In this document: one piece after another, positions 3,240-62,035 of the stretch | Position numbering within the stretch: position 1 is the first letter of the stretch | How the letters are laid out: every line of letters starts with the position of its first letter | Sequence record: MK373774.1 | Length of the DNA: 64,000 nucleotides | From: Escherichia phage vB_EcoM_WFL6982 | Strand: one strand, 5' to 3' | Notes under the pieces: generated by a model | Database searches by the model: none | What the model was told of the DNA's origin: nothing | What the model saw: the letters and a program-made list of their open reading frames with translations, nothing else | Translations under genes and position numbers: made by a program

Positions 3240-3595
3240 TTTCTACATTCCTTAATAAAGTTTTCGATTGTTTCATTTTCACGTCTAGCTAGGAGTTCAT
3301 TATAACTAATCATTTGAGAAGCGTAAACCTTTTTATTTTTCTTGTTATGGTTTATAAAATCGTAGTAAAAATAGACTACAGTACAAAAGGATGCGATGGA
3401 TGCAAAGGCTTGGGTATACCGTAAGTCCTGCCATTGGTCTGTGAATCCACCAGTGTTCCCTATAAATCCTAACACAACGCCATCAATAAGAAATCCAACT
3501 AATCCAAAGGCAAATCCCATGCCGGCGCTCATGATAAAAATTAAAATATTCTCACCAAGAGAAGGCCATACGGTTAAGAGTTGAGGCTTTTGCAT
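3236..3595 (-). CDS. small membrane protein
   Basis: Hydrophobic stretch MSAGMGFAFGLVGFLIDGVVLGFIG in the translation; overlaps neighbours by a few nt. Confidence 0.5.
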   Translation of the reverse strand: MQKPQLLTVWPSLGENILIFIMSAGMGFAFGLVGFLIDGVVLGFIGNTGGFTDQWQDLRYTQAFASIASFCTVVYFYYDFINHNKKNKKVYASQMISYNELLARRENETIENFIKECRK

Positions 3596-7407: not shown

Positions 7408-7455
7408 ATTTGATAGGATGATAGTATCACACCATCATCCTTATGTAAACTGTTT
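7408..7455 (-). promoter_or_regulatory. T4-type early promoter with inverted repeat
   Basis: Minus strand GTTTAC-N18-TACTAT; AGGATGATG/CATCATCCT arms. Confidence 0.55.
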
Positions 7456-37916: not shown

Positions 37917-39485
37917 ATGACTACTATCAAAACTAAAGCTCAGCTCGTAGACAAATGGAAAGAACTGCTGGAAGGTGAAGGCCTGCCGGAAATCGCTAAT
38001 AGCAAGCAGGCTATTATCGCTAAAATCTTCGAAAACCAGGAAAAAGATTTCGAAGTATCCCCTGAATATAAAGACGAGAAAATCGCTCAGGCATTTGGTT
38101 CTTTCTTGACCGAAGCTGAAATTGGCGGTGACCACGGTTATAACGCTCAGAACATCGCAGCAGGTCAAACCTCTGGTGCAGTAACCCAAATTGGGCCGGC
38201 AGTTATGGGTATGGTTCGTCGTGCTATTCCTAATCTGATCGCTTTTGATATTTGTGGTGTTCAGCCTATGAACAGCCCTACCGGTCAGGTATTTGCTCTC
38301 CGTGCAGTATATGGTAAAGACCCTATCGCTGCCGGCGCTAAAGAAGCTTTCCATCCGATGTATGCTCCAGATGCGATGTTCTCTGGTCAGGGTGCTGCTA
38401 AGAAATTCCCAGCTCTGGCTGCTAGCACACAAACCACAGTAGGTGATATCTATACTCACTTCTTCCAAGAAACTGGTACTGTATATCTGCAAGCTTCTGC
38501 TGTCGTAACACTTGATTCTGGTGCAACTGATGCAGCTAAATTAGATGCAGAAGTTAAGAAACAAATGGAAGCTGGTGCACTGGTAGAAATCGCTGAAGGT
38601 ATGGCTACTTCTATCGCTGAACTCCAGGAAGGTTTCAACGGTTCTACCGATAACCCATGGAATGAAATGGGCTTCCGTATCGATAAACAAGTTATCGAAG
38701 CTAAATCTCGCCAGCTGAAAGCTGCTTACTCTATCGAATTAGCACAAGACCTCCGTGCAGTACACGGTATGGATGCTGATGCTGAATTGAGTGGTATTCT
38801 GGCTACAGAAATTATGCTAGAAATCAACCGTGAAGTTGTTGATTGGATTAACTACTCTGCACAGGTTGGTAAATCTGGTATGACCCTGACTCCGGGTTCT
38901 AAAGCTGGTGTATTTGACTTCCAGGACCCGATTGATATCCGTGGTGCTCGTTGGGCCGGTGAAAGCTTTAAATCTCTGTTGTTCCAGATTGATAAAGAAG
39001 CAGTTGAAATTGCTCGTCAAACCGGTCGCGGTGAAGGTAACTTCATTATCGCTTCCCGTAACGTAGTTAACGTACTGGCTTCAGTTGATACTGGTATTTC
39101 TTACGCTGCACAGGGTCTGGCTTCTGGTTTTAATACCGACACTACTAAGTCTGTATTTGCCGGTGTCCTTGGTGGTAAATACCGCGTATACATCGACCAG
39201 TATGCTAAACAGGATTACTTCACCGTTGGTTACAAAGGCGCTAACGAAATGGATGCAGGTATCTACTATGCTCCTTACGTTGCACTTACCCCGCTGCGTG
39301 GTTCCGATCCTAAGAACTTCCAGCCGGTAATGGGCTTTAAAACTCGTTACGGTATCGGTGTTAACCCGTTTGCTGAAAGTTCCCTGCAGGCTCCAGGTGC
39401 TCGCATCCAGTCCGGTATGCCGTCTATCCTGAACAGCCTTGGTAAGAACGCTTACTTTAGACGCGTCTACGTTAAAGGAATTTAA
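37917..39485 (+). CDS. 23: major capsid protein
   Basis: 522 aa, order. Confidence 0.95.
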   Translation: MTTIKTKAQLVDKWKELLEGEGLPEIANSKQAIIAKIFENQEKDFEVSPEYKDEKIAQAFGSFLTEAEIGGDHGYNAQNIAAGQTSGAVTQIGPAVMGMVRRAIPNLIAFDICGVQPMNSPTGQVFALRAVYGKDPIAAGAKEAFHPMYAPDAMFSGQGAAKKFPALAASTQTTVGDIYTHFFQETGTVYLQASAVVTLDSGATDAAKLDAEVKKQMEAGALVEIAEGMATSIAELQEGFNGSTDNPWNEMGFRIDKQVIEAKSRQLKAAYSIELAQDLRAVHGMDADAELSGILATEIMLEINREVVDWINYSAQVGKSGMTLTPGSKAGVFDFQDPIDIRGARWAGESFKSLLFQIDKEAVEIARQTGRGEGNFIIASRNVVNVLASVDTGISYAAQGLASGFNTDTTKSVFAGVLGGKYRVYIDQYAKQDYFTVGYKGANEMDAGIYYAPYVALTPLRGSDPKNFQPVMGFKTRYGIGVNPFAESSLQAPGARIQSGMPSILNSLGKNAYFRRVYVKGI

Positions 39486-39514
39486 TGCTTTAACGTTAAA
39501 ATACATAACCTTAT

Positions 39515-39532
39515 GGGAGACTTCGGTCTCCC
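39515..39532 (+). terminator. GGGAGACUUCGGUCUCCC hairpin terminator
   Basis: Identical 18-nt hairpin to 20163-20180, followed by ATTTTTGG. Confidence 0.75.
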
Positions 39533-39542
39533 ATTTTTGGTT

Positions 39543-39812
39543 TTATTTCTGTGCAATTTCGATGTAAGTTTTCAAAATATTTTGCCAATTAGGCATACCT
39601 TCTTGGGCATATGCCGGAGAACCATCTTTGTTTTTGAATGATGCAAGTTTATCAGTGGCCCAATAACCTTTAGCTCGAGCTTCAGAATCAACTTTCATCC
39701 ATACTTTGTTGAAGGCATTACCATTAACTTTTGCACCATATTTTTCTACTAACTTAACTGCTTCAGCTTCCAGAACTTTTAAAGTATCTCGTAAGAAACG
39801 TGCTTTAGTCAT
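39543..39812 (-). CDS. hypothetical small basic protein (early gene inside the late capsid block)
   Basis: 89-aa ORF with GAGGAG SD and its own early promoter; no match to any T4 protein I recall. Confidence 0.65.
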   Translation of the reverse strand: MTKARFLRDTLKVLEAEAVKLVEKYGAKVNGNAFNKVWMKVDSEARAKGYWATDKLASFKNKDGSPAYAQEGMPNWQNILKTYIEIAQK

Positions 39813-39824
39813 TTTGTTTACTCC

Positions 39825-39875
39825 TCTGTAGTTGATAAGTCTATAGTATCACATACCAAATACGTTGTAAACAAT
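39825..39875 (-). promoter_or_regulatory. T4-type early promoter
   Basis: Minus strand GTTTAC-N18-TACTAT-AGACTTATCAA. Confidence 0.55.
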
Positions 39876-39878
39876 CTT

Positions 39879-39886
39879 TATAAATA
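39879..39886 (+). promoter_or_regulatory. late promoter TATAAATA
   Basis: Exact TATAAATA upstream of gene 24, back to back with the early promoter. Confidence 0.65.
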
Positions 39887-39913
39887 ATCTATATCACATA
39901 AGGAAAAAATGCA

Positions 39914-41197
39914 ATGAGTAAAATCCAAAAATTATTGCGTGAATCTACAACGTCTACTAGCAACTCAATTGGTCGCCCAAATCTCGTTGCTTTGACTCGC
40001 GCTACGACTAAATTAATATATTCTGACATTGTAGCAACACAAAGAACTAATCAACCTGTTGCTGCTTTTTATGGTATCAAATATCTTAACCCAGATAACG
40101 AATTCACATTTAAAACTGGCGCTACTTATGCTGGTGAAGCTGGATACGTAGACCGAGAAAAAATTACTGAGCTCACAGAAGAATCAAAAGTCACACTAAA
40201 TAAAGGCGATTTTTTCAAATATAATAATATCGTCTATAAAGTGTTAGAAGATACACCATTTGCAGATATTCAAGAAAGTGATCTAGAATTAGCTCTTCAG
40301 ATTGCAGTCGTTCATTTAAAGGTACGGTTATTTTCAGATGCAGCGGTAACAAGCAAATTTGAAAGCTCTGATAGCGAAATTTCTGATGCAAGATTCCAGA
40401 TTAATAAATGGCAAACTTCAGTCAAATCTCGTAAACTTAAAACTGGTCTCACGGTTGAATTAGCGCAAGATTTGGAAGCGAATGGATTTGATGCCCCTAA
40501 CTTCTTAGAAGATTTGCTTGCTACTGAAATGGCAGATGAAATTAATAAAGATATTCTTCAGTCTTTAATTACTGTATCGAAACGTTATAAAGTTACTGGA
40601 ATTACTGACACCGGATTTATTGACTTGAGCTATGCATCCGCTCCAGAAGCAGGTCGTTCGTTATATCGAATGGTGTGTGAAATGGTATCACACATCCAAA
40701 AAGAGACAACTTATACTGCAACGTTTTGTGTAGCCTCAGCTCGTGCAGCTGCTATTCTTGCTGCTTCCGGTTGGTTAAAACATAAGCCAGAAGATGACAA
40801 GTATCTTTCACAAAATGCTTATGGATTCTTGGCAAATGGATTACCTCTTTACTGCGATACCAACAGCCCGTTAGATTATGTTATTGTGGGTGTTGTAGAA
40901 AATCTCGGCGAAAAAGAAATTGTAGGGTCCATCTTTTATGCTCCATACACTGAAGGAGTGGATTTAGATGACCCGGAACATGTCGGTGCATTTAAAGTTG
41001 TAGTTGATCCGGAAAGCTTGCAACCGTCTATTGGATTATTGGTTAGATATGCTTTATCAGCAAATCCTTACACAGTAGCAAAAGATGAAAAAGAAGCGAG
41101 AGTAATTGATGGCGGGGACATGGATAAAATGGCGGGACGTTCAGACTTGTCTGTTTTACTCGGTGTTAAATTGCCTAAAATTATTATAGATGAATAA
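39914..41197 (+). CDS. 24: capsid vertex protein
   Basis: 427 aa, order. Confidence 0.9.
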   Translation: MSKIQKLLRESTTSTSNSIGRPNLVALTRATTKLIYSDIVATQRTNQPVAAFYGIKYLNPDNEFTFKTGATYAGEAGYVDREKITELTEESKVTLNKGDFFKYNNIVYKVLEDTPFADIQESDLELALQIAVVHLKVRLFSDAAVTSKFESSDSEISDARFQINKWQTSVKSRKLKTGLTVELAQDLEANGFDAPNFLEDLLATEMADEINKDILQSLITVSKRYKVTGITDTGFIDLSYASAPEAGRSLYRMVCEMVSHIQKETTYTATFCVASARAAAILAASGWLKHKPEDDKYLSQNAYGFLANGLPLYCDTNSPLDYVIVGVVENLGEKEIVGSIFYAPYTEGVDLDDPEHVGAFKVVVDPESLQPSIGLLVRYALSANPYTVAKDEKEARVIDGGDMDKMAGRSDLSVLLGVKLPKIIIDE

Positions 41198-42603: not shown

Positions 42604-42800
42604 TTCTTCACCTTTTTGTTAATCAAACGTTTACGGTATACAACTTTTTCTTTTGCTTTAAACTTTGACCGAGCTGTCTCGGCTTTAGTCCATAGTAATC
42701 CAACTTCTTTAGGTTGTAAACCAATTTTTTGAGCAATTTCTACGAATGAAAATCCCGCCTCATGTAATGTATAAACTTCAACTTCAGCTCTCATAATCAA
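42600..42800 (-). CDS. hypothetical protein (24.3 position)
   Basis: 66-aa basic ORF, synteny. Confidence 0.5.
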   Translation of the reverse strand: MIMRAEVEVYTLHEAGFSFVEIAQKIGLQPKEVGLLWTKAETARSKFKAKEKVVYRKRLINKKVKK

Positions 42801-54624: not shown

Positions 54625-54670
54625 TTGTTGATAGGATAATAGTATCACACATCCATGTGTTTGTAAACTA
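54625..54670 (-). promoter_or_regulatory. T4-type early promoter
   Basis: Minus strand GTTTAC-N18-TACTAT-TATCCTATCAA; overlaps the alt 3' end. Confidence 0.5.
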
Positions 54671-61534: not shown

Positions 61535-61590
61535 AGTTGTTTGTTGGTACAGGTCTCTATAATAACATAACCTGTACCAAAGTAAACTGT
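61535..61590 (-). promoter_or_regulatory. T4-type early promoter with inverted repeat
   Basis: Minus strand GTTTAC-N17-TATTAT with GGTACAGG/CCTGTACC arms. Confidence 0.45.
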
Positions 61591-61984: not shown

Positions 61985-62035
61985 ATTAGATGGTACAAGT
62001 CTATAGTAACACATCCTACAGGAGAGTAAACATCT
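61985..62035 (-). promoter_or_regulatory. T4-type early promoter
   Basis: Minus strand GTTTAC-N17-TACTAT-AGACTTGTACC. Confidence 0.5.

Follow-up and report, generated by a model that had tools for sequence, protein, structure and literature searches.

A small early-type gene in a bounded cassette slot between capsid genes 23 and 24 of T4-like phages

Introduction

In phage T4, the slot between genes 23 and 24 holds segD, which lies on the minus strand and encodes a free-standing GIY-YIG homing endonuclease. A 2010 review reported that no segD-specific promoter had been found and that the transcript levels were probably vanishingly low (PMC2988022). In a time-resolved omics study of T4 from 2022, the segD RNA was classed as early and the SegD protein was detected (PMC9697503, supplementary files 4-6). 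For phage RB69, Nolan et al. 2006 predicted an early promoter on the minus strand, Pe:109605 (109555-109605, HMM score 29.9), and listed the late promoter of gene 24, Pl:109573, among the predictions in their additional files (PMC1524935). In the same work, the -35 consensus of T4 early promoters was given as GTTTAC, and 13 of the 57 predicted early promoters of RB69 were located upstream of novel ORFs (PMC1524935). A literature search returned no paper on the small ORF described here beyond the annotation of RB69.

The DNA analysed in this work is a stretch of 64,000 nucleotides from Escherichia phage vB_EcoM_WFL6982 (MK373774.1), referred to below as the window. Its spacer between genes 23 and 24 carries a small ORF on the minus strand, which an earlier note on this DNA had taken for a self-contained early cargo gene. 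We compared the locus with those of other phages and examined the predicted properties of the encoded protein.

Results

The interval 39486-39913 of the window was exactly the gp23/gp24 spacer, and its sole ORF consisted of 89 codons on the minus strand, with a product beginning with MTKARFLRDTLKVLEAEAVKLVEKYGAKVNG. Judged from its sequence, the window is T4-like Mosigvirus DNA, and the region 39400-40000 was 100% identical to Escherichia phage vB_EcoM_WFK (MK373775). The earlier note had described an 89-aa minus-strand ORF within a plus-strand late block, isolated between the terminator of gene 23 and the late promoter of gene 24, with a strong Shine-Dalgarno sequence and an early-type promoter of its own; all of these elements were found in place (Table 1). 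The TTTACA and TACTAT elements of the early promoter were separated by 17 nt. This promoter and the late promoter of gene 24 stood back-to-back on opposite strands, with 6 bp between the -35 hexamer and the late element. The hairpin at the other end of the spacer had a folding energy of -18.9 kcal/mol on the plus strand and -17.3 kcal/mol on the minus strand (z about -5). On the plus strand it had the form of a canonical terminator, with a UUCG loop followed by a U-run, and on the minus strand the U-tract after the stem was weaker. The hairpin was identical in phage WG01, and VR20 had a different hairpin of the same form. A search of Rfam with the spacer returned no match to any RNA family.

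Table 1. Features of the gp23/gp24 spacer and its flanks, in window coordinates
Feature	Position	Strand	Remarks
Gene 23, major capsid protein	37917..39485	+	borders the slot upstream; product 95% identical (aa) to gp23 of T4
G+C-rich 9-bp hairpin	39513..39534	both	separates the convergent gene 23 and small ORF
Small CDS, 89 aa	39543..39812 (including stop codon)	-	from the ORF listing; WFK_00174, 'hypothetical protein'; PHROG 6003
Shine-Dalgarno sequence GAGGAG	39826..39821	-	8 nt 5' of the ATG at 39812; conserved in the alignment with WG01 and LF82-7
T4-type early (sigma-70) promoter	39836..39886	-	-35 GTTTAC at 39872..39867; -10 TACTAT at 39848..39843, with extended TG
Gene-24 late promoter TATAAATA	39879..39886	+	invariant in the alignment of the relatives' spacers
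Gene 24, capsid vertex protein	39914..41197	+	borders the slot downstream; product 95% identical (aa) to gp24 of T4

Judged by its conservation and substitution pattern, the small ORF is a genuine protein-coding gene under purifying selection. In all ORF pairs compared, pN was far below pS; the dN/dS ratio was 0.07 between WG01 and LF82-7, and in the remaining, more distant pairs the synonymous sites were saturated (pS 0.54-0.79). Across genera, the protein was conserved over its full length, with identities of 30-70%; G31, N32, N35, and Q70 were invariant, as was the aromatic character of position 51. These conserved residues look structural, as parts of a helix cap and an aromatic core, and do not form an obvious binding site. 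The small ORF was annotated as a hypothetical CDS in every annotated record examined. The small protein matched the PHROG 6003 profile with residues 1-89 against positions 1-90 of 90 (E=1.5e-44, 150.9 bits) and is thus a full-length member of this family, a membership that explains nothing because PHROG 6003 has no assigned function. That the frame is non-functional, either a chance ORF or a decaying remnant in the spacer, is scarcely credible. Broken copies do occur in RB69, in phage mogra, and in a few metagenomic contigs, but the PHROG match and the conserved Shine-Dalgarno sequence and promoter speak against it, and a chance ORF was rejected on the full-length conservation across genera, the low pN relative to pS, and the predicted fold shared by both alleles.

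The promoter class and the homology of the locus indirectly point to a T4-type early gene. Eight sites in the window of 64 kb matched the motif GTTTAC-N16-19-TAYHAT, compared with an expectation of 0.49 from shuffled sequences, and all eight lay on the minus strand; the promoter of the small ORF is therefore part of a genuine class with strand specificity. The seven further sites (1116-1145, 3299-3328, 7421-7450, 42692-42721, 54639-54668, 61559-61587, and 62003-62031, all on the minus strand) are probably other early promoters of the window, and several of them have an extended version in common, GTTTACA...TG(T)GATACTAT. The early promoter of the small ORF was conserved in position and sequence in VR20, WG01, and LF82-7, and a homologous promoter precedes T4 segD, the RNA of which is classed as early (PMC9697503). 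In the alignment of the RB69 and window spacers, the predicted Pe:109605 corresponded to 39836-39886 of the window, which would place the transcription start of the small ORF near 39836. Reading by eye of the minus strand of 39813-39913 revealed neither a MotA box (TGCTTtA) near -30 nor a TATAAATA element. The minus-strand rnlB operon further upstream has its own annotated terminator before gene 24, and read-through is therefore not an obvious source of the transcript. An antisense-RNA role was considered and dropped: the early transcript (from about 39836 to the hairpin) and the late transcript of gene 24 would start on opposite sides of the promoter pair and for this reason should not overlap. 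A literature search found no Mosigvirus transcriptome.

As read from the records compared, T-even phages have a bounded cassette slot between genes 23 and 24, which occurs in four states. The terminator hairpin bounds this slot at one end, and the early and late promoters, arranged back-to-back, bound it at the other. In T2 the slot was empty: the spacer was 83 bp long, the hairpin was followed directly by TATAAATA, there was no minus-strand promoter, and no remnant of the ORF was visible. In the second state, the slot held the small ORF alone; this applied to the window and to most Mosigvirus records, and also to Dhakavirus and Gaprivervirus. In LF82-7, the ORF was accompanied directly downstream by a SegD-like GIY-YIG endonuclease, encoded as a separate gene of 219 aa that started 3 nt past the ORF and was 57% identical to T4 SegD. 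The fourth state, segD only, was that of T4, where segD lies on the same minus strand; the earlier note had also placed segD in this slot of T4. In a sample of 60 rows of the ranking, all listed phages of Tequatrovirus and of other T4-like genera lacked the ORF, and their slot was either empty or occupied by segD; every listed Tequatrovirus without segD had a short, empty span, as did Karamvirus CC31 and the T4-like phages of Klebsiella, Cronobacter, Serratia, and Kosakonia. The gp23 and gp24 proteins of T4 are 95% identical to those of the window, and yet neither T4 nor T2 has the small ORF.

T4 segD has the same slot, the same antisense orientation, and the same position before the gene-23 hairpin as the small ORF. 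It also has a homologous TTTACA-17-TAYTAT promoter, back-to-back with the late promoter of gene 24 as for the small ORF. The promoter block ATTTATAAAG-TT(G/A)TTTACA ... TG-TAYTAT was shared by both, and this comparison identifies the promoter before segD in T4 as a homologue of the small ORF's early promoter in Mosigvirus, Dhakavirus, and Gaprivervirus. In the T4 record MT984581 (L005 2828-2856, minus strand), TTTACA-17-TATTAT with TG was located upstream of segD, with 10 of 12 positions matching. The gene products, in contrast, are unrelated: the small protein has 89 aa and had no match to a GIY-YIG (Seg-type) domain in Pfam or NCBIfam.

Two deeply diverged allele classes of the small ORF, about 31-35% identical, are distinguished by the alignments. 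Between the window and Dhakavirus or Gaprivervirus, identity was 84% for gp23, about 70% for gp24, and 33-35% for the small ORF, which indicates that the ORF is much less constrained than its neighbours. LF82-7 (L004 2144-3073) combined flanks of one type with an allele of the other. Its gp23 and gp24 were 99% and 98% identical to those of the window, whereas its small ORF was 31% identical to that of the window and 94% identical to that of Dhakavirus WG01. The change between window-like and WG01-like sequence coincided precisely with the hairpin at one junction and with the Shine-Dalgarno sequence at the other. These junctions, together with the allele pattern, indicate that the ORF allele and the endonuclease were exchanged as a unit, and on the position of the junctions the recombination is placed in short conserved boundary elements, namely the hairpin and the Shine-Dalgarno sequence. 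As a separate observation, two tandem paralogues of gene 24, about 70% and 55% identical to the single gp24 of the window, were present in Dhakavirus, Gaprivervirus, and two uncultured relatives (L002 330-2894, L003 336-2899, L011 337-2901, L014 338-2897).

Such an exchange raises the question of whether the small ORF is only a passenger of a homing-endonuclease slot, spread by co-conversion with little or no benefit to the phage. The presence of segD in the same slot of T4 behind a homologous promoter fits this explanation, as do the Mosigvirus flanks (98-99%) around a WG01-type allele (94%) in LF82-7, its junctions at the hairpin and the Shine-Dalgarno sequence, and the endonuclease gene only 3 nt past the ORF; about 38 phage records carry a SegD-like endonuclease with at least 80% identity to the LF82-7 copy. 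However, roughly 200 of the 239 records with the ORF, as estimated from the counts, appear to have it without that endonuclease, no endonuclease was present in the slots of WG01, VR20, L011, L013, and L014, and none neighboured the rV5-like and siphovirus-like homologues described below. With purifying selection on the small protein in addition, we regard the passenger explanation as quite unlikely.

The distribution across T4-like phages, which had been proposed as a check of the cargo-gene idea, was surveyed with tblastn. The small ORF was found in 239 phage records, about 120 of them at 80-100% identity and 119 below 60% (30-38% among the matches listed), and the slot carried it in the same orientation in three genera, Mosigvirus, Dhakavirus, and Gaprivervirus. 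It was located between genes 23 and 24 on the opposite strand in VR20 (Gaprivervirus), WG01 (Dhakavirus), LF82-7 (Mosigvirus), and the uncultured T4-like L011, L013, and L014. RB69ORF188c and RB69ORF189c are the same gene in the same slot, and the RB69 spacer DNA had a mean column identity of 95% with that of the window. The frame of the RB69 reference copy was broken by a 1-bp insertion and a 1-bp deletion and was annotated as the two ORFs, whereas the copy in the window was intact. These two indels (NC_004928 109291-109531; L006 9292-9532) were about 150 bp apart in otherwise nearly identical DNA. RB69 may have a genuine pseudogene here, or the 2003 sequence may be in error. In phage mogra and a few other records, the small ORF was split or truncated as well, and the broken copies in RB69, mogra, and others imply that lytic growth does not require the gene, at any rate on laboratory hosts.

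The comparison of the records thus supports the view that the small ORF is an accessory, dispensable gene in a swappable slot, where promoter, Shine-Dalgarno sequence, and ORF form a self-contained, monocistronic cassette. The claim that it is a cargo gene agreed with the empty slot in T2 and most other T4-like genera, the broken copies, and the relatives in unrelated phages. It is neither a recent nor an unusual insert: three genera have long carried the gene, and between its alleles the synonymous sites are saturated.

Outside the T-even phages, relatives of 84-88 aa were found in three settings: in the Vequintavirinae phage ABPH49; in three rV5-like metagenomic contigs, as part of extended arrays of small ORFs read in the same direction; and in a siphovirus-like contig, between tail and replication genes. 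The family was tiny, with about 25 clusters among 5.8 billion proteins, all of them small phage proteins, and an exhaustive HMM search of 1.84 billion representatives returned 10 matches. The homologues in unrelated phages each had an upstream spacer of 95-460 nt. Sigma-70-like hexamers (TTGACG ... TATATT) were recognized by eye at L008 4920-4960, and a hairpin followed by TATTAT was located upstream of the homologues in L016 and ABPH49. That the small gene travels with its own promoter is suggested by these comparisons. Among the database matches, two giant proteins with Big_2/Ig repeats (P0022 and P0024) were rejected as probably spurious, since they matched in 7 and 11 separate stretches over the repeat domains. 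The last third of P0020, a metagenomic protein of 160 aa, nearly matched the Dhakavirus-type allele, which suggests an assembly chimera. P0006, a phage protein of 90 aa, was named 'NADPH-dependent curcumin reductase CurA' by JGI, an evident misannotation.

The small protein was about 10 kDa and soluble (hydropathy index -0.6). AlphaFold2 predicted the same topology for both alleles, with a pLDDT of 88 for the allele of the window and of 94 for that of the Dhakavirus type; it consisted of a helix (residues 3-25), a second helix (residues 31-48), a β-hairpin, and a C-terminal helix. The pI was about 9.6 and the net charge about +5 in every T4-like allele of both classes, and the distant relative P0021 was nearly neutral. 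No catalytic motif was present. Searches of Pfam, NCBIfam, PADLOC (defence-side models), and the PDB sequences gave no significant match, in agreement with the statement of the earlier note that endonuclease motifs are absent, and the sequence and fold searches of the PDB returned no characterised relative. Homology and structure prediction, which had been put forward as a further check, thus yielded a confidently predicted fold with no characterised relative in sequence or fold. Three weak candidates were rejected. The match to Pfam DUF4859 (16.7 bits, E=0.0072) was below the gathering threshold of 22.6 and was obtained with only 3 of 15 family members; a match to an unsaturated glucuronyl hydrolase was also below threshold; and the matches to winged-helix domains in the Foldseek search of the PDB were insignificant (E of 0.3 or worse, TM-scores of 0.2-0.3).

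The charge and the fold bear on several possible functions. Anti-restriction proteins of the Ocr/Arn/ArdA type have a strongly acidic surface that mimics DNA. Such an acidic surface was absent from the small protein (pI 9.6, net charge about +5), and the basic charge argues against this DNA-mimic type. A small nucleic-acid-binding regulator of the phage's own early programme, acting on transcription or translation, would fit the conserved basic charge (pI 9.6, net +5) and the helix-helix-hairpin-helix topology, and several of the top Foldseek matches were winged-helix proteins (DnaD-N, ORC2, Cdt1, and archaeal regulators). Those matches are insignificant and carry no weight, however. T4 and T2, with flanking genes that are 95% identical, would be expected to possess a core regulator, and the RB69 copy is frameshifted; a regulator of this kind is therefore judged unlikely.

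The location between genes 23 and 24 could also point to a capsid-associated or injected internal protein. The internal proteins IPI-III of T4 have a capsid-targeting N-terminus similar to MKTYQEFIAE, which is cleaved by gp21. The basic charge of the small protein and a weak match to a PHROG 'internal virion protein' (E=0.12) would be in line with such a role, but that match was not significant, and the N-terminus, MTKARFLRDT, did not resemble the targeting sequence by eye. The (L/I)xE motifs of the small protein lie within the confidently folded helix 1 and are not conserved, VR20 having LVN instead. In addition, the gene lies opposite to the late genes, behind an early promoter, and its strand lacks a TATAAATA element, and the rV5-like homologues are found in arrays of small genes, not in structural modules. 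A virion role is very improbable on this evidence.

Discussion

We propose that the small protein is a candidate conditional host-interaction factor, made at the start of infection and acting by binding, with a probability of roughly 0.5; this value, like the grading of the other functional proposals, is a judgement and not a measurement. According to this proposal, the host RNA polymerase with sigma-70 would fire the GTTTAC/TACTAT promoter in the first minutes of infection and produce a transcript of roughly 300 nt ending at the shared hairpin. The resulting basic, soluble protein of about 10 kDa would bind a macromolecule of the host or of a competing element, which may be a nucleic acid or something associated with nucleic acids, and it would be of benefit in some hosts only, as a host-takeover or counter-defence factor. 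The lack of a catalytic motif means that the small protein probably acts by binding; the searches of Pfam and NCBIfam, which returned no enzyme family, and the basic charge kept in the T4-like alleles count in the same direction.

Within the proposed host-interaction role, the anti-defence and host-takeover functions for which the earlier note had named the gene a candidate are guesses: counter-defence specifically is a possible function that we put forward tentatively, and some other host-takeover function is a doubtful one. The combination of purifying selection and saturated synonymous sites would fit an old, stable gene as well as an arms-race locus. A more speculative version, which we also consider doubtful, is that the small protein would be the first known representative of a new fold family of early phage inhibitors and would neutralise a strain-specific immune or nucleoid-associated factor of E. 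coli. In that case, the two allele classes, exchanged between genera together with a SegD-like endonuclease, would differ in their target, and the gp23/gp24 slot would be a portable counter-defence cassette.

Should the small protein prove to act in counter-defence or takeover, the small phage inhibitors would gain a further member with a fold not seen before, and differences in host range between therapeutic phages of Mosigvirus and Dhakavirus would become easier to explain. In the nearer term, the value of the results is descriptive and concerns the bounded gp23/gp24 cassette slot, its states, and the homology of the segD promoter. For RB69, both the gene and its early promoter had been recorded before (PMC1524935), and the family had been recorded as PHROG 6003; the four-state cassette, the exact recombination junctions, and the promoter homology with T4 segD go beyond the existing annotation.

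The existence of the small ORF is in itself unsurprising, as T4-like genomes hold many small early ORFs without assigned function. In a screen of early proteins of the Mosigvirus AV110, the candidates were chosen by homology to T4 early proteins, and the small ORF would be absent from this screen because it has no T4 homologue. With the small early 'novel ORFs' of T4-like phages that have early promoters of their own, and with T4 host-takeover proteins such as Alc or the Emp protein of AV110, the small ORF shares its size, its early-promoter class, its dispensability, and its patchy distribution. It differs from them in its location, as it stands isolated in the block of late head genes and not in an early-gene cluster.
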